Shown here piece after piece: positions 4,050 through 59,464 of a stretch of DNA of 64,000 bases; the stretch's first letter is position 1; each line of letters opens with the position of its first letter. Source of the stretch: an uncultured Gammaproteobacteria bacterium (GTDB taxonomy: Bacteria; Patescibacteriota; Microgenomatia; UBA10105; UBA927). The notes beneath the pieces are model-generated. The model did not search any database, was not told the origin of the DNA, and saw only the letters and a list, made by a program, of their open reading frames with translations. Position numbers and translations under genes: made by a program. The stretch is from the NCBI GenBank assembly GCA_964621305.1, contig CAZUOM010000005.1:18647-82646 (forward strand). Reading direction: 5' to 3'.

Positions 4050-4110
4050 AAGTTATAAAGTTTATAAAGTTAAAAGTCCTTAAAGTAAAAGCTTTATAAC
4101 TTTATAACTT
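4050..4110. repeat. AT-rich ~20-bp inverted repeat (hairpin) in the eno-ppsA spacer; right arm overlaps the ppsA stop codon
   Basis: aagttataaagtttataaagtt ... aagctttataactttataactt are near-perfect reverse complements (one indel), loop ~17 nt; no U-tract follows on either strand. Confidence 0.6.
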
Positions 4111-6391
4111 TATTAACTATTTTGTTTTCCGCCTGATAAACAGTTTCTCTTACGTGATCTACGGCATCCGGGTTTACCGAGACGCTTGTGATGCCCCAAC
4201 TGACAAGTTTTTCAACGAGCTCCGGATAATCTGACGGCGCTTGCCCGCAGATAGAGCTAGTAACTGCGCGTTTGGCACAGGTTTTGATAGTACGTTCAAA
4301 CGCCCACAGGACTGCATCATCAACTTCGTAAAAGTCTTTGGCTACCTCGCTATTGTCTCGATCCGTGCCCAGTATGAGCATGGTTAAATCATTGGAGCCA
4401 ATGGAAACACCATCAATCCCGATGTCAAGGTATTTTTCAATCAAAATGGCATTTGTCGGGACTTCGACCATCATCCACAAACGAAATGTTGATGAGCGAC
4501 AGAGCCCGGATCCTGTGACGATTTTCTTAACCTCCAAAAGTTCTCTGGGCGAACGCACAAATGGTATCATCAAAGAAAGATTCTTCAGTCCGTGCTTGTT
4601 GCGAACCGCTTTGATTGCTTCCAGCTCCAACTCAAACACCCGAGGATCGGCAATATAGCGCGCCGCACCGCGGTACCCGAGCATGGGGTTTTCTTCTTTA
4701 GGTTCGTACTTTTCCCCACCTTTGAGGTCTCGGAACTCATTGGTGCGAAAGTCGCTGGCCCGGTACACAACCGGCCGGGGATGAAACGCCTCACAAATCG
4801 TAGTCATCCCGGAAGATAAACGGTTGATAAAAAATACTTCTTTCCTTTCGTCGATAAGTTTCCTTGGGTGGGTACCTATTTGAGCCATCATAAACTCCGC
4901 GCGTAAGAGCCCCACGCCATCTACATTCATTTTTGCCACTTCTTTTGCACGATCCGGTTGAGCCAGGTTGACGTAGACATGGGTAGCGGTTTTTAAGTTC
5001 TTCCTGAAAACACCTTTGGCGATTGGGTTTTGGGTTCCACCTTCTCTTTTCACAACTCCTCGATATATCTCCCCCATCGATCCATTGACCGTTATTACCA
5101 AACCGTCTTTGAGCAGTTTCCTTGCTCCAGTTGCGCCAACGACACACGGGATACCCAGTTCCCTAGAGACGATGGCCGCATGAGACGTTCTACCTCCCTG
5201 TTCTGTGACAATTGCAACGACCTTCCTCATAACGGGAACATAATCCGGGTTGGTCATTTCTGCTACCAATACGCTGCCAAATTTTACTCTGTGCAGTTGG
5301 TTGGGAGACGAAAGTTGAGCCACCGGTCCGCTGCCAATACCCGGACTTGCCGCATCGCCCTTCAGCAGCAAAGCTGCTTCAGGGTAAACCCTCTGTGTTG
5401 CTTGCCCTGAACCCCGTTCTGCGGGGTGAAGGGTTGTTATCGGCCTCGTCTGCACTAAATATATCTTTTTTTTCTCAATGGCCCATTCGGCGTCCTGAGG
5501 AAAAAAATAGTGATGTTCCAATTTTTTGGCCAATACGGCAAGCTCAAGAATCTCCGCATCGGTCAATTTCTGCTTACTTCCCAGTGTTTTTGTTATCCTG
5601 GTTTCCACGTTTTTACTACCCTTTCGCGCGAGCATCAAATCCTGCGTGCGGGTCTGTTTAACTAAGATCGTTAACTTCTTTTTATCTACTTCATAGTGAT
5701 CAGGCGTCACGGCGCCCTGGACGATCATTTCTCCGAGTCCGTAAATTGCTTCAATGACAATTTTTGATTTATCGTTAGTTACCGGATCGATCGTAAACAT
5801 GATACCTGATTTCTCCGACTCAACCATTTTTTGTACTGGAACGGCAATACCAACCTTAAAGTGATCAAAATTGTTCGTTGCTCTGTAAAATATCGCTCGT
5901 GCAGTAAAAAGCGACGCCCAGCACTCCTTTACTTTTTCAATGAGGTTAGCTTCACCCTCTACGTTGAGAAACGTCGCCTGCTGGCCGGCAAATGACGCAT
6001 TCGGTAAGTCCTCAGCGGTCGCTGATGAGCGTACGGCAACGAGGGGATGTTTAAAGACACCGTCGCCGCCAAGTTTAAAGTAGACTCGAATTATTTCTTG
6101 TGCGATCGATTTAGGAAATTCGAAGCGCGTGATAAAATGCTGGATATTTTTTGAAGCTTTCTCAAGGGCTTTACTATCGCTTACCTCTAATCCTTCTAGT
6201 TCCTTCTTAATCCTCTTTTCTAGCTGGTTATGATTTAGGAAATCCTGGTAAGCCTTTACAGTTACGATAAAACCAGGAGGCACTGGGAATCCGGCCTTTG
6301 TCATCTCGCCAAGATTTGCTCCCTTTCCGCCGACGATATCTACGTCTTCGCGATCAACCTCATTAAACCAAACAACATACTTTGCGGGCAT
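4094..6391 (-). CDS. ppsA: phosphoenolpyruvate synthase (pyruvate, water dikinase)
   Basis: 765 aa; N-terminal GGKGANLGEM ATP-grasp motif, central phosphohistidine domain (GGRTSHAAIVSRELGIP) and C-terminal PEP-utilising domain; length fits PEP synthase rather than PPDK. Confidence 0.8.
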   Translation of the reverse strand: MPAKYVVWFNEVDREDVDIVGGKGANLGEMTKAGFPVPPGFIVTVKAYQDFLNHNQLEKRIKKELEGLEVSDSKALEKASKNIQHFITRFEFPKSIAQEIIRVYFKLGGDGVFKHPLVAVRSSATAEDLPNASFAGQQATFLNVEGEANLIEKVKECWASLFTARAIFYRATNNFDHFKVGIAVPVQKMVESEKSGIMFTIDPVTNDKSKIVIEAIYGLGEMIVQGAVTPDHYEVDKKKLTILVKQTRTQDLMLARKGSKNVETRITKTLGSKQKLTDAEILELAVLAKKLEHHYFFPQDAEWAIEKKKIYLVQTRPITTLHPAERGSGQATQRVYPEAALLLKGDAASPGIGSGPVAQLSSPNQLHRVKFGSVLVAEMTNPDYVPVMRKVVAIVTEQGGRTSHAAIVSRELGIPCVVGATGARKLLKDGLVITVNGSMGEIYRGVVKREGGTQNPIAKGVFRKNLKTATHVYVNLAQPDRAKEVAKMNVDGVGLLRAEFMMAQIGTHPRKLIDERKEVFFINRLSSGMTTICEAFHPRPVVYRASDFRTNEFRDLKGGEKYEPKEENPMLGYRGAARYIADPRVFELELEAIKAVRNKHGLKNLSLMIPFVRSPRELLEVKKIVTGSGLCRSSTFRLWMMVEVPTNAILIEKYLDIGIDGVSIGSNDLTMLILGTDRDNSEVAKDFYEVDDAVLWAFERTIKTCAKRAVTSSICGQAPSDYPELVEKLVSWGITSVSVNPDAVDHVRETVYQAENKIVNKVIKL

Positions 6392-6424: not shown

Positions 6425-6460
6425 AAGGTCTCACCTTGCAGTATTGCAAGGCGAGACCTT
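6425..6460. repeat. 36-nt palindromic element (AAGGTCTCACC...GAGACCTT), intergenic copy between ppsA and pgi
   Basis: aaggtctcaccttgcagtattgcaaggcgagacctt folds as a hairpin; a second 36-nt copy with the same termini and compensatory interior changes lies at 58854..58889. Confidence 0.6.
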
Positions 6461-6466
6461 AAGAAA

Positions 6467-7540
6467 TTAAGTCTTTGCCAGTTCTGCCTTGAAATAGTCA
6501 ACCCAAGGGATTTTGCTGGGATTGATGTCGTAGAGCATTGACATGTAGTAGTTTACGTAAGCGCCAAACTGGATACATTCGAACACTTGCGCGACTTTTG
6601 TCTTCGACTCTGGGACAAATTCCTCTATATGCATTCCCTGCTTTCGCACGACATCCTTGGTTATTGCGACTCTCTTTTCAATAACCTCTGAATAAAGATT
6701 AGACGTGAGAAATAAAAACGTAAGTATTTGTTTATTCTTGTTTGGAAATGTGAGTGCCTCCATCAGGTGGTGGTTGAGCTCTGGTATGTCATGGTAGGCT
6801 GCAAACGCTTTAGCACACTCATGGAATTGATTGCGAATGACCCGGCCAACCTGCAATAAAAATTCTGCTGAGACGATAATCGGTATTTTCTCAAACCACG
6901 TAAGTGCCAACTGCTTAGCGGAGTTGCTTGTCGTGGGCACAGAAAGTCCAAAAGATCTGTTTCCCTTATCGGCAACCGCTTCAATATCGCCGCTATCTTT
7001 ATCTGAAAGCGAAATAAAACCAAGGCTATTGATAATAGCCATCTGACCGTATACGGTATAACCTGTACCAAGACGCGGCTGTGCTGACGGATTATAAAGC
7101 GGATTAAAAATATATGCCGGGACTTTAAAGCTTGCGAAAACATCTCCAAGTGTCTTTCCGATGGTAATACCGGTCAATTGTGCGTTTTTTTCTCCGGCTT
7201 CCTTGGCGCAGGCAATCGCCTCTTCGGTAGTTCCCGAGTAGCTGCAAACTATCACCAAGGAATCTTTGTTAACGTAGGGCGGCAAATGATAGCCGTTAAT
7301 AATTTCAAATGGTACTTTCAATTCATCGAAAAAAAGCGATTTGATAACATAGGCGCCCAGTGCCGACCCACCCATGCCGGCAAACACAATGTTTTTTACG
7401 TTTCTGTAAAAGTCCGGAAACCGGATTTTTTTAACGTCTTCCCACGCCTGCTGACACTGTTTTCCTAAGAGTTCAATCGACCCCAAAACATTTTCCTCAT
7501 CAAGCCTATTAACCGCAGCAATATCATCAAGATTTTGCAT
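6467..7540 (-). CDS. bifunctional phosphoglucose/phosphomannose isomerase (SIS-domain, archaeal-type PGI/PMI)
   Basis: 357 aa; SIS-domain signatures (VFAGMGGSALGA, VIVCSYSGTTEE); size and architecture of the archaeal-type PGI/PMI family. Confidence 0.7.
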   Translation of the reverse strand: MQNLDDIAAVNRLDEENVLGSIELLGKQCQQAWEDVKKIRFPDFYRNVKNIVFAGMGGSALGAYVIKSLFFDELKVPFEIINGYHLPPYVNKDSLVIVCSYSGTTEEAIACAKEAGEKNAQLTGITIGKTLGDVFASFKVPAYIFNPLYNPSAQPRLGTGYTVYGQMAIINSLGFISLSDKDSGDIEAVADKGNRSFGLSVPTTSNSAKQLALTWFEKIPIIVSAEFLLQVGRVIRNQFHECAKAFAAYHDIPELNHHLMEALTFPNKNKQILTFLFLTSNLYSEVIEKRVAITKDVVRKQGMHIEEFVPESKTKVAQVFECIQFGAYVNYYMSMLYDINPSKIPWVDYFKAELAKT

Positions 7541-47455: not shown

Positions 47456-48229
47456 TCATCGACGCACTAATACAAATTGGTGAGCCTGCCACTCAAGCGC
47501 ATCGTCAAGGGGCTGTAAGTCGATTTTTTTCTGATACTTCAATTCAAGCGCTTTACCAATCAGCCAGTCGGCGAGGTGAGGGTTTTTCGGGAGTAGCGGC
47601 CCGTGGAAGTAGCTGCCGATGGCGTTTTTATAAACCGCCCCTTCATATCCATCCTCTCCATTGTTTCCATATCCTTTAATCACTCTCGCGAGCGGTTTCA
47701 TCTTAGCCCCTAAATACGTCCTCCCACCGTGGTTTTCAAAACCTACTATTTTCCTGTTTTCCCATGAACCATGAGCCATGAGCCATGAACTCAGCTCAGC
47801 AACCACATTCCCAATCAACCTCTTCTTCTGATCTCCCGGGTGCTCGGTGTACAGGTCAAAAATACCTGCTCCGGGTATCTTTGCGCCTTGGTAGGGTTTG
47901 TAATAATGGCCGACGAACTGGTAGGCCGCACAGACAAATAGCGCCGGAATTCCTTTTTCGACCATTTTTTTGACTGTTTCTGATTTTTTGCCCAAAAAAT
48001 CCTCTGCGACAATCTTCTGCTGCCGATCCTGCGCCCCACCCATAAAGAGAAGATCGCAACGCTCGAGAGTCGGGTATCGAGTTTCGAGAGTGATGCGTTC
48101 AGCTCTTAGCTCAATGCCTCTCCACACGCACCGCTTCGTCAAACAAATAATATTCCCACGATCACCATATGTCGACATTAGGTCGGGATATAACCACCCT
48201 ATGGTAATGCTCTGTTTCATCTTTTTCAT
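47456..48229 (-). CDS. gatD: lipid II isoglutaminyl synthase glutaminase subunit (CobB/CobQ-like GATase)
   Basis: 257 aa; ITIGWLYPDLMSTYGDRGNI...LLFMGGAQDRQQ...ALFVCAAYQFVGHYY matches the GatD family; directly downstream of murT. Confidence 0.75.
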   Translation of the reverse strand: MKKMKQSITIGWLYPDLMSTYGDRGNIICLTKRCVWRGIELRAERITLETRYPTLERCDLLFMGGAQDRQQKIVAEDFLGKKSETVKKMVEKGIPALFVCAAYQFVGHYYKPYQGAKIPGAGIFDLYTEHPGDQKKRLIGNVVAELSSWLMAHGSWENRKIVGFENHGGRTYLGAKMKPLARVIKGYGNNGEDGYEGAVYKNAIGSYFHGPLLPKNPHLADWLIGKALELKYQKKIDLQPLDDALEWQAHQFVLVRR

Positions 48230-48287
48230 GACCTAGCAGTGAAAAGCGGCCGCTTGTTACTACTAGGTTTTAAAGGATCTTAGACTT

Positions 48288-49796
48288 TTACAATATTCTC
48301 CTGCCTGTTAGTAGTTTACGCACTTCCAACATAGCTGAATACGTAGGCAATATGTAAAGAGTTTCTGATTTTGGAGTTTGTCTTAGACACCGGTTTATTG
48401 CTTTCTTTAAGTCTTCTTCAATTTGAAATTTGAAATTTGAAATTTGAAATTTTGAGGGATTTGAGTATTTTATTCTCAATCCCATATCCCAACATCGATC
48501 TCCCGATATTACCATTATCGTTTTTTCCGCGATCATCTCAAAATCCACATCCCAGATCCAGCTAACGTCTCGCCCATCCGGAATACGATCGTTGAGGACA
48601 AACAAAATATTTTTAGCGCCCAGTTGGAGAACTGTTCGTAACGATTCATTAAATCCGGCAGGATTTTTTGAGAGAAATATCTTCACCTTTCGACCATCAA
48701 TCTCAAATTCTTCCTGGCGGCCAAAGGCAGGAGAAAAGCCCCTAAGCGCATGCTTAATTTTCTGATCGGCAATGCCTAATGACTTTGCTGTCGCGACAGT
48801 CGCAAGGGTATTGTAACGATTATAGAAGCCTGGCAATGGATACTCCCACGTCGAAATATCCGGTTTTGGTCGTATGTTTTTACACCTGGCGCAGCGCCAG
48901 TCGCCTATGTGAGAATAATAAACGCCCTTGTACGTTAACCGTGTACCGCATCGCGGACAAAACGTTGAATCAGTTGCATGCTCGAGCTTTTCGACAAACT
49001 GCGCCGGATCATCGAGACCAAAGAATATGACCCTTTTTGTCATCGCGATCCGCCAGCTGGCGGAGTGGCGATCTCGGACTTGATTTGAGATTGCTTCGCC
49101 ATGAGAATGGTCTCGCAATGACAAAGGCCGTGCTATCTCAGCAATCTGCGGATCATCGGCATTGGCAATTACCTGAATACTAGGGCCGAGCCTCGAGCGA
49201 TCCCGAGTCTTTGCGAGGGAGAAGCGATCGGCTCGTCCTGAGGAGTCCTGAGCTTGCGAGGGACGACGAAGGGCTCTCTCCCATTTCTCCGCGATCACAT
49301 CCACCTCTCCATACCGATCCAACTGATCCCGAAAAAGATTAAGTAAGACAACAACAACTTTTTGTTTGTTGTCATTGCGAGGAGTCTTCGACGAAGCAAT
49401 CTTCTGTTTAATTGAGATCGCTTCGCCGTCAGAACGGTCTCGCGATGACAAGTTAGCCAGTACTCCCGGAAGGGAGTTTTCGTCTACCTCAAACACTCCC
49501 CATTCCCCCGGCGGACTCGTAATGATGGCAGAAACGATACCGTTAAGAAGGTTTGCGCCGCTTGAATTGTGAACGACACTTTGTCCGTCTTTCTCAAGAA
49601 TTGTTTTTATCATGAAAGCTGTCGTTGTTTTTCCGTTTGTTCCGGCAACCAAGATGATATTTTTAGGTGTTATTTTAGATAAAATATCGGGGTCAATCCG
49701 CAACGCAATTTCCCCCGGCCAAGTTGCTCCAGCGCCGAGGTTGAGTAGTTTAATTAGCAATGAAACAATTTTTCCGAGAAAGACGGGAAAAATCAT
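48288..49796 (-). CDS. murT: lipid II isoglutaminyl synthase, Mur-ligase-like subunit MurT (with internal in-frame insertions)
   Basis: 502 aa; ILVAGTNGKTTTAFMI P-loop, conserved LNLFRDQLDRYGE block, Cys4 zinc ribbon CPRCGTRL...CARCKN; several low-complexity in-frame insertions coincide with palindromic DNA elements. Confidence 0.8.
   Translation of the reverse strand: MIFPVFLGKIVSLLIKLLNLGAGATWPGEIALRIDPDILSKITPKNIILVAGTNGKTTTAFMIKTILEKDGQSVVHNSSGANLLNGIVSAIITSPPGEWGVFEVDENSLPGVLANLSSRDRSDGEAISIKQKIASSKTPRNDNKQKVVVVLLNLFRDQLDRYGEVDVIAEKWERALRRPSQAQDSSGRADRFSLAKTRDRSRLGPSIQVIANADDPQIAEIARPLSLRDHSHGEAISNQVRDRHSASWRIAMTKRVIFFGLDDPAQFVEKLEHATDSTFCPRCGTRLTYKGVYYSHIGDWRCARCKNIRPKPDISTWEYPLPGFYNRYNTLATVATAKSLGIADQKIKHALRGFSPAFGRQEEFEIDGRKVKIFLSKNPAGFNESLRTVLQLGAKNILFVLNDRIPDGRDVSWIWDVDFEMIAEKTIMVISGDRCWDMGLRIKYSNPSKFQISNFKFQIEEDLKKAINRCLRQTPKSETLYILPTYSAMLEVRKLLTGRRIL
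49028..49113. mobile_element. MITE-like palindromic element with 12-bp terminal inverted repeats (TGTCATCGCGAT...CTCGCAATGACA), in-frame inside murT
   Basis: termini are reverse complements; interior is an inverted pair of a ~38-nt unit (gagattgcttcgcc...ggtctcgcaatgaca). Confidence 0.5.
49370..49450. mobile_element. second MITE-like palindromic element with 12-bp TIRs (TGTCATTGCGAG...CTCGCGATGACA), 81 nt = 27 codons, in-frame inside murT
   Basis: same TIR family as 49028..49113; a third degenerate copy of the unit lies between them at ~49190..49290. Confidence 0.5.
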
Positions 49797-54770: not shown

Positions 54771-55863
54771 ATGCACCAGCCAATATCCACATCCATACCA
54801 TCACCCAAGGATAAAAAAGGCTGTTGACAAATAAACTGTGCACAAAGACTGCGGCAAGGCTTGCCAAATACATTGGTTTGCGCCCAATTTTGCCCATCCT
54901 CAACAAAAGCCAAAGGTAAGCTCCCAGCCCAACAATCCCAGTTGTCGCAGCCACAAAAAGAAGGCTGTTGTCTACCCCTGCCCCCGCACGCGAGGGAGTT
55001 ATGTCTCTCGTCTCGCGCTGCCGGAGAATCGGCAAAGTATTAAATCCCCACCCGAACAACGGTTTTTGACTGATTAAAGAGAAGGTCTCCTTCCAGTTGA
55101 CAAGTCTCGAAACAGTCGAGTCAAATCGATCGAGCGAAAGCGCTTCCCGGCCCGGATGCGGCAGATAAACAATCGCTAGAAGCACAAGCAGCACGACAAA
55201 CAGCCCCTTTTTCCACTGGCTTTTTACCAAAACCCCAAAAAAGACTCCTGTCAGCAACGCAAGGTAACTACTACGTGAATACGTAAGAAGTAGCGCAATG
55301 AAAGCCAAAATAACAAAGTGAATTTTTTTCAGATCGACAGCAAGTAATATTGTTAAAACGATGATTATACCTGTGAAATTCGGGTCAAAAAGCGTGCTAA
55401 ACAATCTATAGTAATGCGGGTCCCACCCAAGGTACATGAGATTGCGCAGATCCGGATAAAGGAAAAATTGTAACAACCCCAAAACTGATAATCCTACTCC
55501 CGCCCCGAATAATGCCTTCAACAGATTCTTTTTCTTAACGACATTGCATGCGGCGACAAAATACAGCCCAGCGTAAAACACCCAACGTACCAAATACAGA
55601 CTGCTCCTTGCTAACTCCTGCCAGGAAAACTGGGAGCTATTGGCAAGAAGCGATATAGCTCCCACCACTACAAACGCCGCTATGGGCCTGACAAGGCGAG
55701 ACCCTGTCATGGACCGTCTGAAAGCTTTCTTTCTAAACGCTACAACCAAGATAATCGCCAAAACTATCTCGTGCGCGTACACTACCACCCCCCTCGCCAC
55801 TTGCATACCACCAAGTTGGCCCAATAACAGGCTAAAGAAGAAAGTTAAAAGAAGCAGTTTCAT
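54754..55863 (-). CDS. O-antigen ligase/polymerase-like polytopic membrane protein (Wzy_C-like)
   Basis: 369 aa; ~10 TM helices with a loop containing YSRSSYLALLTGVFFG resembling the O-antigen ligase domain. Confidence 0.45.
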   Translation of the reverse strand: MKLLLLTFFFSLLLGQLGGMQVARGVVVYAHEIVLAIILVVAFRKKAFRRSMTGSRLVRPIAAFVVVGAISLLANSSQFSWQELARSSLYLVRWVFYAGLYFVAACNVVKKKNLLKALFGAGVGLSVLGLLQFFLYPDLRNLMYLGWDPHYYRLFSTLFDPNFTGIIIVLTILLAVDLKKIHFVILAFIALLLTYSRSSYLALLTGVFFGVLVKSQWKKGLFVVLLVLLAIVYLPHPGREALSLDRFDSTVSRLVNWKETFSLISQKPLFGWGFNTLPILRQRETRDITPSRAGAGVDNSLLFVAATTGIVGLGAYLWLLLRMGKIGRKPMYLASLAAVFVHSLFVNSLFYPWVMVWMWILAGASISDT

Positions 55864-56633
55864 GAATGCTCATTCTGCAAGCGCCAAAGTTTAGAACGCA
55901 CAAGAAAGGAGTGAAAACTCATCATAAGAGCTAAAATTACTCCAGCAGTTCCATCCATAAACCCCAGGCGCCAGAAATAATTGACAAGAAACTTGATTTT
56001 CGGATATGCGATGATCTGCCACCAAGACACGGTAACTCCTTGGGAATGTAAATATCGTGCGTTGAGAGTCGAATACCGGTTAATTTCATCTAAAAATTGT
56101 GCGACGTTAGGGTGGGGGTAGTGGAGGAGTGGATGACTTAGTTCTCCAACGTTTCCTTTTACGTCCCACACTTCATGCACCGGCCGTGTCCATTTTCCAG
56201 CGTCCTTTTTAGCCAGTCGCAACAGTTTCACATTGGCCGTCTCCCCGTGTGTAAGCCACCTCCCCAAAAAATAATCCTTTCTCTTGACGTAGAATCCAAC
56301 CTCTCTATTTGATATTTCCGCTGGTTTTTTGATGACATTCTGAATCTCAGAAGCCAATTCTTGACTCACAATCTCATCGGAATCTATAAACAATACCCAC
56401 TCCCCTCTCGCCTTACTCAACCCAAAATTCCTCTGGGCCGCAAAATCACCGTTGAGTTTTCTCCGAAATACTTTTCCTCCCAGTTTTTTAGCTAGCTGCG
56501 CCGTCCCATCTGTCGACTCGTCGTCAATAACTACTATCTCATCGCACCAGGTCAGAGACTGGTAGCATCGTTTGATAATGTCTTCGTCATCATGTGTTAA
56601 GACAACTCCAGATATCATAATCCCATTGTACAA
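55860..56633 (-). CDS. family 2 glycosyltransferase
   Basis: 257 aa; GT-A fold motifs VVLTHDDEDII...VIDDESTDGT...LFIDSDE (DxD). Confidence 0.8.
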   Translation of the reverse strand: MYNGIMISGVVLTHDDEDIIKRCYQSLTWCDEIVVIDDESTDGTAQLAKKLGGKVFRRKLNGDFAAQRNFGLSKARGEWVLFIDSDEIVSQELASEIQNVIKKPAEISNREVGFYVKRKDYFLGRWLTHGETANVKLLRLAKKDAGKWTRPVHEVWDVKGNVGELSHPLLHYPHPNVAQFLDEINRYSTLNARYLHSQGVTVSWWQIIAYPKIKFLVNYFWRLGFMDGTAGVILALMMSFHSFLVRSKLWRLQNEHS

Positions 56634-56787
56634 CTTTCCTTTTTCTCAATACCATCAACCTAGTAGTAACAAGCGGTCGCTTTTCACTACTAGGTTCCAA
56701 GAAGAGTGAGTCCTCCACGGACTGAAGTAATAATTTACCGGAAAATAAATCTCGTGTACACTACGTCAACGCGTACTCTCTAAAAAA

Positions 56788-57876
56788 ATGAACACGCCAA
56801 GGATCTTTTTTTTCATTTTCGTTATCTATATTCTAGGATTTTTTGCGCACGTGCTCCATCTTAAAAAAACAGTCTACGGGGATGGGATTTTTTACTACTC
56901 GTGGGTGCGTTCCATGGTTGTTGACCATGACATCGATTTTCAAAATGACTATCAACATTTTGGGGTAAATCAACAGGGAAATAAACACGCCGTAGGTCCG
57001 GCGCTTTTGTGGATTGTCCCGTTTTGGTGGATGCACCAGACTGTTCAGGCAACAGGCTACGAGTTTCCTTACCAATTGGCCGTTGGCTTAACAAGCGTCC
57101 TTGCCGTGATTTTCGGGCTGATTCTTCTCTACCAACTCCTTCGTAGATGGTTTAGTCAATCAGCAAGTATTTTAACCATACTTGCCATCGCGTTTACGAC
57201 CAATCTCCTTTTTTACGGGTCGCTGGATACTGTCAATTCTCACGGGGTATCGTTTTTTGCCAGTGCACTCTTTTTGGCCTTCCTTATCAATCGTCAAGCG
57301 TTGTTAGCCGGATTGGCACTCGGCTTCCTCGGAGCCATTCGCCCTCACGACCTTATTCTTGGCATTGTCGCATTCGGACTCTTGCATAAAAAAGAGTGGA
57401 CAAAATTTCTGGTCGGAGCAGGAATCGGCTTTTTGCCGCAACTCGTTGCCTGGCAAGCACTCTACGGAAACTTTTGGAACATCCCATATTTTTCCGGCGA
57501 AGGATTTAATTTACTGCAACCACACCTTCTGGAGGTTCTTTTTTCGACAAACTTTGGCCTATTTGTTTATTCTCCCATTCTGATCCTCGGACTACTCGGG
57601 CTTTTTTTCTGGAAAAACCGATTGCGTCTATTTTTCTCTCTTGCCATCCTCCTAGAGTTACTCGCCATCTCCTCCTGGAGCACCTGGTGGCAAGGGGCTA
57701 GCTACGGCGGCCGGATGTTTGTCGGGAGTCTCCCGCTTTTTGCCTTAGGAATCGCGACAACTTTTCAATTGCTACTGCGGGCAATCCGTTCAATAAATTT
57801 TGTATTAGCAGCTGTCATCATTCCACTTTCACTTTTAAATGTCATCTTGATATTTTTCTTTCTCTTACGGACGTAA
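56788..57876 (+). CDS. polytopic membrane protein, possible GT-C-type glycosyltransferase
   Basis: 362 aa; >=9 predicted TM helices, large first loop with acidic cluster (VVDHDIDFQNDY). Confidence 0.35.
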   Translation: MNTPRIFFFIFVIYILGFFAHVLHLKKTVYGDGIFYYSWVRSMVVDHDIDFQNDYQHFGVNQQGNKHAVGPALLWIVPFWWMHQTVQATGYEFPYQLAVGLTSVLAVIFGLILLYQLLRRWFSQSASILTILAIAFTTNLLFYGSLDTVNSHGVSFFASALFLAFLINRQALLAGLALGFLGAIRPHDLILGIVAFGLLHKKEWTKFLVGAGIGFLPQLVAWQALYGNFWNIPYFSGEGFNLLQPHLLEVLFSTNFGLFVYSPILILGLLGLFFWKNRLRLFFSLAILLELLAISSWSTWWQGASYGGRMFVGSLPLFALGIATTFQLLLRAIRSINFVLAAVIIPLSLLNVILIFFFLLRT

Positions 57877-59464
57877 GAGCAACTACACCAAGTGCTAACA
57901 ATCCAACAATTGAAAACCGCAGTCCAACTCGCGTTGCACGGTCAATCGCTTCGCGTTCTTTGGTAATATCAGGAGATCCAAAAGATTTAAGTTGCTCAAT
58001 CGAAATGTTTCGGAAATCAACTCCGGTCGGATCTTTGCTATTTGGATTTATAAAATCACGATATTTCTGCAACACTAACGATGCATACCCATCATATGAG
58101 GGAATGTGATAGAGCATGTTGAGGTTTGGGCGAAGGATTTTAGCTTGCCAAGATGTTTCTGCGGCAACATCAATAAAAGGTTTCCCTTTTGCATACGGAT
58201 TGGGAAAAGTCTTCTGGTCGACTAGAATTCGACCTTGATCGTCTAGTTTTTGCGCTGTGACCTTTGCGTCAGCGAGCCAGTCGGCAACCTGCGCCTCCGG
58301 AACCGTTAAAAGATTATTTCTGCTAAACAAAAATAATTCTGCAAAAATTATGATGATGATTAACTTCTGGATAAATTTTTTTTGAACCAGCTGTTGAGCG
58401 CTAAATCCGGCAAGTATGGCAATAGAAAATGTATAAAGCAGAAGGAAGTGTTGAGGGGACCGAAAATAAGAAAGACCGGGCAGCACATGGTAGGCAACCC
58501 AGTATACTGGCGTGTGTTTCCCAAGTGCCAACATAAAAGAAATGATTGCAGTAAAAACAAAAAACCGTACCGCGCTTTTTTTTCGTGGAGCAAAAAGCGC
58601 CAGAAGTAAGGCCAGTACGCCAACATAACCATATACACTCCCGCCCTGTGCTAGCACAAATCCTTCTGAAAGGTTTCCAACGATGTTGGGTATAATCAAA
58701 CGAGCCACAGACAGAGGGTGGAGTGAGTCAAATGTCGCGTACCTATAATCTCCGTTGAACCGCGTTGAAAGCCGTACAAACTCGAGAAACGGAATTGTCT
58801 GGACGGCAGTAAGAAGAAAAATTAACGAAATAAGAATGATAAATTGTTTTATAAAGGTCTCACCCTGTATTCTGACAGGGTGAGACCTTGTCAAGAGCCA
58901 AAGCAAATACACACAGACAAAGAGCCATGTAAGGTACGTTAGCTGAGGATGCCCTGAGACAATCTGTAGCGACGCAAATAATACTCCTACTATTAAATTT
59001 TTGCTCACTCCCCACAAAACCCATGGCAGAAGCGACGCCACCTGAATCATCGGCGCGTTATTGGTGTACACCACCATCGTGCCGGAAAAACCGAAGACAA
59101 TCGCAGCAACAAAGCTGCCGAAGGGTGAAACTTTAAGAGACCGAGCAAAAAGGTAGATACCCACAAGTGCGATCATGAAGTTAAGAATGATTCCCCACGT
59201 TAACGCTCCAAATGGCGACACCGATGCGTACAGAATGTTAAGCGGATACAGAAGAGCATTGTTAATATCAGCAAAAAACGGCGTGCCGGAAAAAATGTAC
59301 GGGTTCCAAAGTGGAAATCTACCCTGTTTGAGCTCTTCTATTAAATAGACTTTGGCGGGAACGTTAATAAGGAAGTTGTCGCAGCAATAGATAACGCGGT
59401 TAAGAAATAATTCGCGATAAAAGAAAATTGCGATTAAAACAATAAACAATATTATCGATCGCAT
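57842..59464 (-). CDS. YfhO-family membrane protein (putative membrane glycosyltransferase)
   Basis: 540 aa; N-terminal GRFPLWNPYIFSGTPFFADINNALLYPLNILY matches the YfhO signature; carries an in-frame 36-nt palindromic element. Confidence 0.6.
   Translation of the reverse strand: MRSIILFIVLIAIFFYRELFLNRVIYCCDNFLINVPAKVYLIEELKQGRFPLWNPYIFSGTPFFADINNALLYPLNILYASVSPFGALTWGIILNFMIALVGIYLFARSLKVSPFGSFVAAIVFGFSGTMVVYTNNAPMIQVASLLPWVLWGVSKNLIVGVLFASLQIVSGHPQLTYLTWLFVCVYLLWLLTRSHPVRIQGETFIKQFIILISLIFLLTAVQTIPFLEFVRLSTRFNGDYRYATFDSLHPLSVARLIIPNIVGNLSEGFVLAQGGSVYGYVGVLALLLALFAPRKKSAVRFFVFTAIISFMLALGKHTPVYWVAYHVLPGLSYFRSPQHFLLLYTFSIAILAGFSAQQLVQKKFIQKLIIIIIFAELFLFSRNNLLTVPEAQVADWLADAKVTAQKLDDQGRILVDQKTFPNPYAKGKPFIDVAAETSWQAKILRPNLNMLYHIPSYDGYASLVLQKYRDFINPNSKDPTGVDFRNISIEQLKSFGSPDITKEREAIDRATRVGLRFSIVGLLALGVVALTSVRERKISR
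58854..58889. repeat. 36-nt palindromic element (AAGGTCTCACC...GGTGAGACCTT) inserted in-frame (12 codons: RSHPVRIQGETF) in the YfhO-like gene
   Basis: aaggtctcaccctgtattctgacagggtgagacctt; 14-bp perfect arms; same termini and length as 6425..6460. Confidence 0.6.

Follow-up and report, generated by a model that had tools for sequence, protein, structure and literature searches.

The window, the whole 64-kb stretch of DNA that was analysed, comes from the lineage Candidatus Gottesmanbacteria (candidate phyla radiation). Hairpins with arms of at least 15 bp occur at just two places in the window, one inside the gene for a membrane protein and the other between two genes. The genes and features at the two loci are as follows.

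57842..59464, minus strand: gene for a YfhO-like polytopic membrane protein of 540 aa, within a glycosyltransferase cluster; host of the palindrome at 58854-58889
58840..58853, minus strand: 3' flank adjoining the palindrome, TATAAAACAATTTA in coding orientation
58854..58889, no strand assigned: 36-nt perfect palindrome AAGGTCTCACCCTGTATTCTGACAGGGTGAGACCTT, a type-1 element of the 36-nt sub-family
58854..58868, no strand assigned: left arm AAGGTCTCACCCTGT, composed of AAGG, the 5-nt interior 'b' (TCTCA) and CCCTGT
58869..58874, no strand assigned: 6-nt loop, ATTCTG on the plus strand and CAGAAT in coding orientation
58875..58889, no strand assigned: right arm ACAGGGTGAGACCTT, the exact reverse complement of the left arm
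58890..58894, minus strand: TTGAC, directly 5' of the palindrome in coding orientation
4094..6391, minus strand: gene of the pyruvate phosphate dikinase / PEP-utilising family, downstream of the second copy, with its start codon 33 nt after it
6425..6460, no strand assigned: second copy of the family, AAGGTCTCACCTTGCAGTATTGCAAGGCGAGACCTT, 36 nt, intergenic, with 16-bp arms and a 4-nt loop
6467..7540, minus strand: gene for a bacterial phosphoglucose-isomerase-like protein, upstream of the second copy, with its stop codon 6 nt before it

Sequence and translation confirmed that the palindrome at 58854-58889 lies in frame within the YfhO-like ORF, as a sequence-only reading of this DNA had proposed. 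Its arms, given there as 14 bp, are 15 bp long and enclose a 6-nt loop, with 100% complementarity between 58854-58868 and 58875-58889. Read on the minus strand, the element gives (T)RSHPVRIQGET(F), residues 192-204 of the 540-aa ORF, encoding R193-T203 together with parts of T192 and F204. The minus-strand RNA folds at -27.4 kcal/mol (z = -6.2), a stability that no shuffle out of 200 matched. The ORF is unbroken and of full length compared with its relatives; the palindrome is probably translated and tolerated. The insert lies in the loop between predicted helices 173-193 and 201-233, where pLDDT is below 50, and its position appears to be a tolerant, inter-helix one. The palindrome lengthens this short loop by about 11-12 residues.

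The intergenic copy at 6425-6460 is related, as had been claimed: it is likewise a 36-nt hairpin, it shares the 11-mer AAGGTCTCACC, and its arms are self-complementary save for one A:C mismatch (a G:U pair in the minus-strand RNA). Its minus-strand RNA folds at -29.6 kcal/mol (z = -8.8; 0 of 200 shuffles as good). With up to one mismatch, AAGGTCTCACC occurs four times in the window against 0.68 expected, a count reached in 1 of 100 shuffles; the four matches are the four arms of the two palindromes and are therefore not independent. No T run follows the 58854 copy (TATAAAAC on the minus strand, GTCAAGAG on the plus strand) or the 6425 copy (GTAAAGTC and AAGAAATT) on either strand. The expectation of further copies was borne out by a third on the same contig, 474 bases past the window, which makes three in 88 kb of the source contig, and by dozens in other Patescibacteria genomes.

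Orthologues of the host protein were compared for the 12-aa insert, which proved to be missing from the closest relatives. The three closest (65-73% identical) are without it, as are the relatives P0002-P0008, and a neighbour-joining tree nested the window protein in a clade of seven insert-less proteins. No AAGG-N5-CCTT seed is present at the site in the insert-less relatives. In a YfhO clade further removed, a hairpin occupies the same codon as in the window gene. Among the hairpins at this site, 95.6% of cells pair and 6 of the 15 pairs are changed on both sides; neither the percentage paired nor the covariation score was reached in any of 500 shuffles. The covarying pairs show no G:U intermediates, the arms being perfect Watson-Crick. 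Two mismatches are present in each of the L002 and L003 hairpins, and in L004 the hairpin has apparently been deleted. The 22 loci from a metagenome scan included no new hairpin-bearing YfhO orthologue. The TGAC 5' of the palindrome does not vary among the six YfhO genes that have a hairpin and is seen again beside 36-nt copies in further genes; it may belong either to the unit or to the unit's target. On the other side, 11 of the 14 bases of the 58840-58853 flank match the flank of a copy in the Gottesmanbacteria genome L084. The L084 host is a non-homologous membrane protein; it was considered as a YfhO homologue and rejected, its similarity being limited to the element and its flank.

A family scan, performed on one genome per species, yielded 92 loci, about half of them in Patescibacteria genomes, and several genomes held 3-6 copies. 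Density in an unbiased 255-kb sample was approximately one per 30-60 kb, with up to six copies per draft genome. The 54 distinct copies are 30-42 nt long, mostly 33 or 36, with arms of 15-16 bp and loops of 3-6 nt. Their architecture is that of two inverted AAGG-N5-CCTT(GC/GT) units, separated by 3-6 nt, that form one 15-16-bp hairpin; 'type 2' hairpins, with single units within an extended stem, are also present. The elements end in AAGG and CCTT and are flanked by TTGAC, TTTAC, (T)TCTGAA or CTCAA. Where elements differ in their interiors, the 5-nt interiors are perfectly complementary in 11 of 12 cases and comprise 10 different sequences. Together with the double changes at the YfhO site, this upholds the proposal that compensatory changes preserve the hairpin. 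Several Patescibacteria phyla have the same outer arms, and the 15-nt arm AAGGTCTCACCTTGC is found in more than 30 unrelated genes and also in intergenic DNA. Mismatches were too few to compare G:U with A:C, and both orientations were seen with no strand bias. Outside the elements, neither AAGG-N5-CCTT (3 sites against 1.36 expected) nor CCTTGY..RCAAGG was enriched, and the former is much sparser than an uptake sequence would be.

Most copies are intragenic (43 of the 54 distinct copies, in open frames that extend 40 aa or more to either side). Persistence of genic copies goes with a length divisible by three (38 of 43) and with reading in the stop-free phase, a single phase giving xRSHL..QGETL in 34 of 43. 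Pfam confirmed several hosts, among them UvrA, LepA, MurD, a NUDIX protein and RecJ; the ATP synthase beta subunit, assigned by eye, is an apparent further host. Of the 11 non-genic copies, most are found 2-17 nt past a stop codon or overlap the 3' end of a gene, the arm's TGA supplying the stop codon in one case; three from Saccharibacteria are instead upstream of genes. In-frame copies are found repeatedly at orthologous sites in assemblies that separate projects made independently; many of the contigs derive from a groundwater time series (the Hainich and NC_groundwater assemblies). At orthologous occupied sites third-position identity is about 0.5, so that synonymous sites are near saturation; the test of arm against flank conservation, being circular for the outer 11 nt of each arm in orthologues ascertained by pattern, was used for flank divergence only. 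Literature searches on the topic, the sequence and the peptide turned up no account of these elements, and a family of very small in-frame palindromic repeats in Patescibacteria is apparently undescribed so far.

Evidence for copying came from the genome JBBTUC01, in which two non-homologous genes share a 51-nt block that includes 9 nt of flank and differs at two loop bases. In JAUXTO01 a different variant of the element sits in these two genes, which points to recent copying. The distribution of the family and this near-identical block suggest that the elements are mobile, as had been proposed from the sequence, although movement was not directly observed. No target-site duplication or other direct repeat is visible beside the copies, and no clean empty site was found: in comparison with the insert-less orthologues of UvrA, a GT4 glycosyltransferase and ATP synthase beta, the native loop has been replaced. 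A UvrA homologue 88% identical to a hairpin-bearing UvrA, for example, has a different loop rather than an exact excision. At the GT4 site, 2 of 10 compared loci have the hairpin; this site came from a tblastn survey of filled and empty sites that was uninformative because gapped alignments span the inserts. In all three proteins the right arm aligns with native G-E residues of the insert-less orthologues. The near-identical contigs L126 and L127 do not differ by a hairpin indel, and L104 and L105 are separated by indels that have nothing to do with hairpins. No HUH/Y1 transposase was detected when 1.15 Mb of genome fragments was scanned with crude regular expressions, which is weak negative evidence, and no matches were found in a viral contig collection that would point to a phage origin.

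The elements resemble several known repeats. REPs are dispersed palindromes of 20-40 bp with sub-families that differ by alternative complementary stem residues; extragenic copies lie at most 20 bp from ORF 3' ends and sometimes provide the stop codon (PMC3733652; PMC3116915). Some REPs are intragenic, notably in DNA-repair genes including uvrA (PMC3733652). Two REPs in inverted orientation can form a single large stem-loop, and such a doublet, or REPIN, replicates as a unit (PMC3116915). The Patescibacteria elements share with REPs a small palindromic stem-loop unit of matching size and the position of most non-genic copies near gene 3' ends, including the one that takes its stop from an arm. 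They share with REPINs the inverted arrangement of AAGG-N5-CCTT units, with replication as a unit suggested by the 51-nt block alone. They differ from REPs in that a GTAG or CGTC tag is absent beside all 54 listed copies; the arms are 15-16 bp and usually perfect rather than 6-13 bp; about 80% of copies (43 of 54) are intragenic and in frame rather than predominantly extragenic; copy number appears to be low; and the host group is the Patescibacteria. No RAYT gene turned up in the crude scan of 1.15 Mb, which is weak negative evidence. Bacterial MITEs, such as Correia elements and Coxiella QMITEs, consist of a core between terminal inverted repeats, produce target-site duplications and span 50-500 bp (PMC10969869, PMC5896051). 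Like MITEs, the present elements are small non-autonomous repeats able to fuse in frame with host ORFs, but the palindrome makes up the entire unit and no duplication can be seen. The earlier description as 'REP/MITE-like' thus survives for REPs, by architecture and position though not by tag, and fails for MITEs, there being no terminal inverted repeats around a core and no duplication. Rickettsia palindromic elements are about 100-150 bp long and encode 30-50 residues (Ogata et al. 2000, as reviewed in PMC10969869, PMC3184786); two of them, RPE-4 and RPE-6, are CGTC-tagged REPs (PMC3733652). Shared with these are in-frame palindromes in unrelated housekeeping genes, a conserved and probably translated extra peptide compatible with the protein fold, and a lineage of reduced genomes, whereas the Patescibacteria elements are 30-42 nt and 10-14 residues long (3-4 times shorter), unrelated in sequence and untagged.

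On balance, the palindrome at 58854-58889 is probably one copy of a dispersed, low-copy miniature REP/REPIN-like repeat family in Patescibacteria that survives in frame in a tolerant loop. Copying that depends on the hairpin would spread or homogenise the family and would hold the two arms complementary; the copying could be the work of a single-strand HUH/RAYT-type transposase, or it could proceed by template switching or by gene conversion directed by short homology. The element would then be a tolerated selfish passenger more than a host device, and the mismatches in L002 and L003 represent decay of the kind expected of a passenger. Intergenic copies may stabilise mRNA 3' ends, as REPs do. 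Against the favoured reading stand the apparently low copy number (approximately one per 30-60 kb), unlike that of classical REPs, the negative transposase scan, and the lack of a visible target-site duplication, of a clean empty site and of a hairpin indel between L126 and L127. The same YfhO codon filled in two clades, and outer arms identical across phylum-level lineages, could instead reflect a selected function.

Bacteria of the candidate phyla radiation have very small genomes and are usually described as repeat-poor. Here, core genes for DNA repair, translation, the cell wall and, apparently, ATP synthase carry a recurrent nucleic-acid palindrome that probably enters the protein. If the favoured reading is correct, the family represents a new type of REP-like element, intragenic and in frame, from a large section of the bacterial tree that is uncultured. 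Its lineage-specific loop insertions will then confuse alignments, structure predictions and phylogenies, while offering a natural marker for strain tracking and gene conversion in metagenomes and a compact test case for how a hairpin repeat spreads without an evident dedicated transposase.

It is also possible, if rather unlikely, that the hairpin is a host-selected cis-acting RNA or DNA signal recurring across genes as a kind of regulon: an mRNA stability or processing site, perhaps, or a translational pause aiding membrane insertion, or a site bound by a protein conserved in Patescibacteria. Such a signal is consistent with pairing that survives six double changes at the YfhO site, with the cross-phylum identity of the outer arms and the occupation of one codon in two YfhO clades, with orthologous sites that remain filled despite near-saturated synonymous sites, with intergenic copies directly past stop codons, and with the great stability of the hairpins. 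The closest orthologues, however, manage without a hairpin, others show decay (L002 and L003) or apparent deletion (L004), and the host genes have no obvious common function. The lack of G:U intermediates and of strand bias among mismatches means that selection at the RNA level is not demonstrated. In Rfam 15 only tRNAs reach the gathering threshold, and local searches give generic hairpin matches far below it; a known RNA family was therefore rejected. The near-identical block in unrelated genes of one genome indicates copying, not convergence. A bolder and less probable proposal is that the hairpins are the substrate of an unrecognised Patescibacteria-wide system that writes and rewrites a palindromic cassette in the loops of housekeeping genes, as a cis signal. 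Such a system might act by templated copying or short-homology gene conversion, without a classical transposase, and the cassette might serve in, for example, recombination, DNA uptake or mRNA handling. It would jointly explain the cross-phylum conservation, homogenisation within genomes, the repeated use of one site by separate clades and the single phase of reading.

Quasi-palindrome correction, or template-switch mutagenesis, is a local process that makes and keeps perfect Watson-Crick arms without G:U intermediates. We consider it improbable that the palindrome was formed in place, by template-switch inverted duplication of a native AAGG-N5-CCTT, rather than inserted as a family member. 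The right arm, QGE(T/A)(L/F), does align with native xGE in GT4, ATP synthase beta and UvrA, so that the net gain is just 5-7 aa, and perfect arms devoid of G:U pairs, with a 5-nt interior that varies freely yet stays complementary (in 11 of 12 elements, perfectly so), are what this process would leave. It could also account for replacement of the native loop. Set against it are the presence of the AAGGTCTCACCTTGC arm in so many unrelated genes and in intergenic DNA, the 51-nt block carried with 9 nt of flank into two unrelated genes, and the missing seed in insert-less YfhO relatives. Local duplication alone yields no dispersed sequence family, although it may still help to correct the arms of one.

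The remaining explanations are together highly improbable: that the palindrome is due to chance or to faulty assembly, that it is an intrinsic terminator or marks a split gene, or that it serves as a restriction-modification target or a DNA-uptake sequence. Chance is ruled out, in agreement with the sequence-only reading, by the 11-mer count, the folding energies, the covariation at the YfhO site and the complementary interiors. Outside the Patescibacteria the motif is found in hairpins that resemble terminators and have A and T runs; at both copies in the window, a terminator or split gene was rejected on the absence of a T run and, for the YfhO-like gene, a continuous, full-length ORF. GGTCTC is the recognition site of BsaI/Eco31I, and the suggestion that it marks a restriction-modification target did not hold: its 21 sites in the window are at chance frequency (19.3 expected), it is absent from many family members, and ten other interiors replace TCTCA among them. 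Neisseria uptake sequences are short conserved words that occur about once per kb, form inverted repeats after and inside genes, and are kept alike within a lineage by uptake and recombination. The Patescibacteria elements occur about once per 30-60 kb, and a lone AAGG-N5-CCTT unit is not enriched; an uptake sequence was rejected on these grounds, although Patescibacteria are described as naturally competent (PMC10633639). An assembly artefact is opposed by the in-frame recurrence of the elements at orthologous sites in independent assemblies.

The palindrome at 58854-58889 (AAGGTCTCACCCTGTATTCTGACAGGGTGAGACCTT) lies within a minus-strand ORF of 540 aa, 57842..59464, and is in frame there, as the sequence-only reading had proposed. 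A repeat finder returned arms of 15 nt each (58854-58868 and 58875-58889), 100% complementary and separated by 6 nt; the arms are perfect, as had been claimed, but one pair longer than the 14 bp originally given. The element's first base occupies the third position of codon T192, which gives the reading (T)RSHPVRIQGET(F). The surroundings of a second, intergenic copy are as follows.

6467..7540, minus strand: phosphoglucose-isomerase-like gene, its stop codon 6 nt before the copy
6425-6460: intergenic copy, 16-bp arms with one A:C mismatch, 4-nt loop
4094..6391, minus strand: pyruvate phosphate dikinase family gene, its start 33 nt past the end of the copy

On the minus strand, the sense strand of both flanking genes, this mismatch is a G:U pair. 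The predicted RNA folds had energies of -27.4 kcal/mol (z -6.2) for 58854-58889 and -29.6 kcal/mol (z -8.8) for 6425-6460, and 0 of 200 shuffles folded as well as either element. No other hairpin in the window has arms of 15 bp or more. An 11-mer common to both copies occurs four times, versus 0.68 in shuffles.

The product of 57842..59464 is identical to a protein on SBBN01000014.1 (assembly GCA_005239695.1). Related proteins come under the names Candidatus Gottesmanbacteria or Patescibacteria, many of them with a Pfam YfhO domain, and the gene is part of a cluster that also encodes glycosyltransferases and membrane proteins of PMT-like type. One of these neighbours, a PMT_2-like gene at 56788..57876 (plus), is convergent with it, the 3' ends overlapping by 35 nt (57842-57876); this tail-to-tail overlap was likewise called at the related loci L008, L009 and L010. 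Comparison with homologues shows that the 12-aa segment is an insert. The stretch from GHPQLT to Q..PF, with the three residues that follow included, is 59 aa in the window protein and 45-55 aa in all but six of 120 homologues. The closest relatives (P0002, P0003 and P0004; 65-73% identity), orthologues of the kind in which absence of the segment was to be looked for, do lack it and have a short basic loop (YKKSFKN, FRRSIPR, FKKSLL) instead of LTRSHPVRIQGETFIKQ. In a low-confidence AlphaFold model (mean pLDDT 57.6) the insert is placed at the turn that joins helices 173-193 and 201-233, with residues 195-201 below pLDDT 50, and extra residues would plausibly be tolerated in such an inter-helix loop.

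We scanned one genome per species with the pattern AAGGTCTCRCC-N8-20-GGYGAGACCTT. The scan yielded 92 loci, about half of them in Patescibacteria genomes (Gottesman-, Collier-, Woese-, Azam- and Saccharibacteria, and 'Patescibacteria group'), so that further copies, as anticipated, do exist. Several genomes with the same hairpins are labelled 'uncultured Gammaproteobacteria' (L016, L019, L021, L029, L067, L074, L081 and others, among them CAYHRN01 and CAYNJY01); this label is probably wrong, because their proteins are 73-81% identical to Gottesmanbacteria genes. The remaining matches formed two groups unrelated to the family: hairpins in other bacteria that resemble terminators and have A and T runs, and a conserved coding motif, GW-KVSP-x8-(A/P)GETF, which is a protein motif and no hairpin. 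The latter was seen at L018, L027, L028, L033, L040, L044, L045 and similar loci in diverse Proteobacteria, Chloroflexota and Actinomycetota.

The commonest form in Patescibacteria is a 33-mer, AAGGTCTCACCTTGC-NNN-GCAAGGTGAGACCTT, with 3-6 copies per genome in several drafts. A relaxed pattern, in which AAGG, CCYTG and their partners were fixed and the 5-nt interior left free, added 12 elements (one match spanning two adjacent units was set aside). In 11 of the 12 the interiors are perfectly complementary, with 10 different 5-nt sequences; a perfect interior match has a chance of 1/1024 per element. A third copy on the window's contig, AAGGACTCTCCTTGCAGCTTCGCAAGGAGAGTCCTT (L103 4956-4991, about 474-509 bases beyond the window end), lies in frame near the end of a GT2 glycosyltransferase gene, five codons ahead of its stop. 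The family is low-copy: ~255 kb of DNA around YfhO homologues, taken as an unbiased sample, gave ~1 element of this design per 30-60 kb. A second type of hairpin, TAGCCTC(A/G)AAAGG-N5-CCTTT(T/C)GAGGCTA, was also found in frame in genes (L117 12348-12378; L118 5246-5276; L041 4360-4390 and 808-838; L047 3815-3849; L114 4815-4847). Its 5-nt loop words (TCTCA, CCTCG, CCTGG) are the words of the main family's paired interior, and one site in an aminopeptidase gene holds either this hairpin (L047) or an element of the main type (L091 3303-3344).

Frames that remain open for 40 codons or more on each side contain 43 of the 54 distinct elements; 38 of these 43 have a length that is a multiple of three (33 nt, n=22; 36 nt, n=12), and 34 are read in the phase x-R-S-H-L...Q-G-E-T-L/F, with only one purely in the other open phase. 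The third phase contains a TGA, which in L038 is the gene's stop codon. The host proteins are ordinary: UvrA, LepA, MurD, a NUDIX protein and RecJ were confirmed by Pfam, and ATP synthase beta subunit (by alignment with the window's insert-less copy), AMP-dependent ligase, Xaa-Pro aminopeptidase and RseP were assigned by eye. Among the 11 copies outside genes, the majority either follow a stop codon by 2-17 nt or extend into the 3' end of a gene, and three in Saccharibacteria lie upstream of genes; just after stop codons is the position reported for extragenic REPs (PMC3733652).

Five more distant YfhO homologues (P0009, P0010, P0011, P0012 and P0014) have a similar peptide in the same alignment column, and the DNA of their genes carries a hairpin at exactly the codon used by the window copy.

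Hairpins at the YfhO site in other genomes
L001, L005 (P0009, P0011): arms AGGGTCTCGCCCTGTC / GACAGGGCGAGACCCT, 16 bp, perfect, 19-nt loop
L006 (P0014): arms AAGGACAATCCTTGT / ACAAGGATTGTCCTT, 15 bp, perfect, interior entirely different
L002 (P0012): two mismatches
L003 (P0010): two mismatches

Among the six aligned sequences 95.6% of cells pair; 6 of 15 pairs are changed on both sides (14 cells) and none shows one-sided variation. Neither the percentage paired nor the covariation score was matched in 500 shuffles, and sliding the partner by 1-3 columns lowered pairing to 27-52%. The compensatory changes postulated from two copies are thus found at one orthologous site. L004 (P0013), within the hairpin-bearing clade, has no hairpin; its sequence there, TTGAC-CCCTACA, suggests a deletion between the two GAC repeats. 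By neighbour joining, the window protein falls inside a clade with seven others, all without the insert, and the hairpin-bearing proteins group apart in another clade. Descent from one ancestral insertion would require four or more precise losses; otherwise the same codon would have gained the element twice, or the segment would have passed from one lineage to another.

Several observations bear on how copies arise. In JBBTUC01 the copies in a ligase gene (L064) and uvrA (L068) share a 51-nt block, TTCTGAAAAGGTCTCACCCTGCC..GCAGGGTGAGACCTTTCAAGGCAC, differing only in two loop bases, and the same two genes of JAUXTO01 (L072 and L070) have CCTTGC or CCTTAT variants and different 3' flanks; the upstream flanks track gene orthology. 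Within one genome, copies from unrelated genes therefore resemble each other more than same-site copies from different genomes do, which is a signature of recent transposition or gene conversion. The CCCTG variant groups by genome (JBBTUC01, JACQHE01, the window's YfhO copy), (T)TCTGAA recurs as a one-sided flank of copies from five or more unrelated genes, and the window copy's flank shares 11 of 14 bases with that of a copy in a non-homologous membrane protein, all of which point the same way, to copying. Cut-and-paste movement fits less well. No target duplication is visible at the copies, and comparison with insert-less orthologues, where available, shows the native loop replaced, not interrupted, by the hairpin, the right arm aligning with native residues.

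Sites with and without the hairpin
GT4: with, F-IRPRLARQGEAF-RNAR; without, F-KPTGEKY-TSQH
ATP synthase beta: with, VPRSHLKNDSQGETFVLEV; without, another 13-residue segment
UvrA: with, FLK-RSHLIKKQGETLKQL-PDV; without, FLK-TNNNKAGGM-PDV (88% identical protein)

Because native loops are replaced and the arms are strictly Watson-Crick, templated copying guided by short homology deserves serious consideration beside a transposase. A crude motif scan of 1.15 Mb of sequence gave no match to an HUH motif, and no hairpin indel separated two near-identical contigs. The GT4 glycosyltransferase adjoining YfhO is a second orthologous hairpin site, found independently of the search pattern: L002 4197-4229 has a perfect 33-mer, AAGGCCTCGCCTTGCGAGGCAAGGCGAGGCCTT, and L003 (about 690-730) a 36-mer with two mismatches. 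The native loop F-(K/S/N)(P/Q)-xGEK(Y/F) is present at seven further loci, the window's own genome among them, and L107 has a different, longer loop. Some copies (L002, L003) are decaying, as expected of passengers. One and the same YfhO codon is used in two clades, reading is nearly confined to a single phase, and the arms are identical across phyla.

The finding is real and its first interpretation essentially right: the element is a member of a family that is structured, dispersed and REP/REPIN-like. REPs are 20-40-bp palindromes, most of them no more than 20 bp from the 3' end of an ORF, with sub-families that have alternative complementary stems and inverted dimers that can fold as one stem-loop (PMC3733652); it is their doublets, REPINs, that are taken to be the mobile unit (PMC3116915), and the classic example of palindromic inserts in frame is the RPEs of Rickettsia (PMC10969869, PMC3184786). 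The Patescibacteria family seems to work like all three. It differs from REPs, however, in lacking the defining GTAG/CGTC tag and in being mostly intragenic rather than near 3' ends, and its elements are 3-4 times shorter than RPEs. Of the proposed mobile REP/MITE-like family, the REP-like part (palindromic and dispersed, although untagged) and a signature of copying stood, and the MITE-like part did not, none of the hallmarks of MITEs being present. Literature searches by topic, DNA sequence and peptide found no description of these elements in Patescibacteria. What is unusual about them is that they reside in frame in core genes of candidate-phyla-radiation bacteria. Searches of Rfam and a viral contig collection gave no match. 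The suggestion that GGTCTC reflects a restriction-modification target was dropped, the site occurring at chance frequency; the AAGG-N5-CCTT unit on its own was not enriched.

Two other repeats were noted in the window. Two copies, in opposite orientations, of an unrelated imperfect palindrome of 40 nt, AACCTAGTAGTAACAAGCGG(C/T)CGCTTTTCACTACTAGGTT, lie at 48230-48269 and 56656-56696 and keep the same internal asymmetry (AAC vs TTC). Each copy is just upstream of a minus-strand start codon, one adjoining 47456..48229 and the other 23 nt from 55860..56633, and may be a 5'-UTR or operator element. At 48419-48452, in a MurT-like ORF (48288..49796, minus), AAATTTG is repeated in tandem about 4.5 times, a 7-nt period that is unusual in coding sequence.
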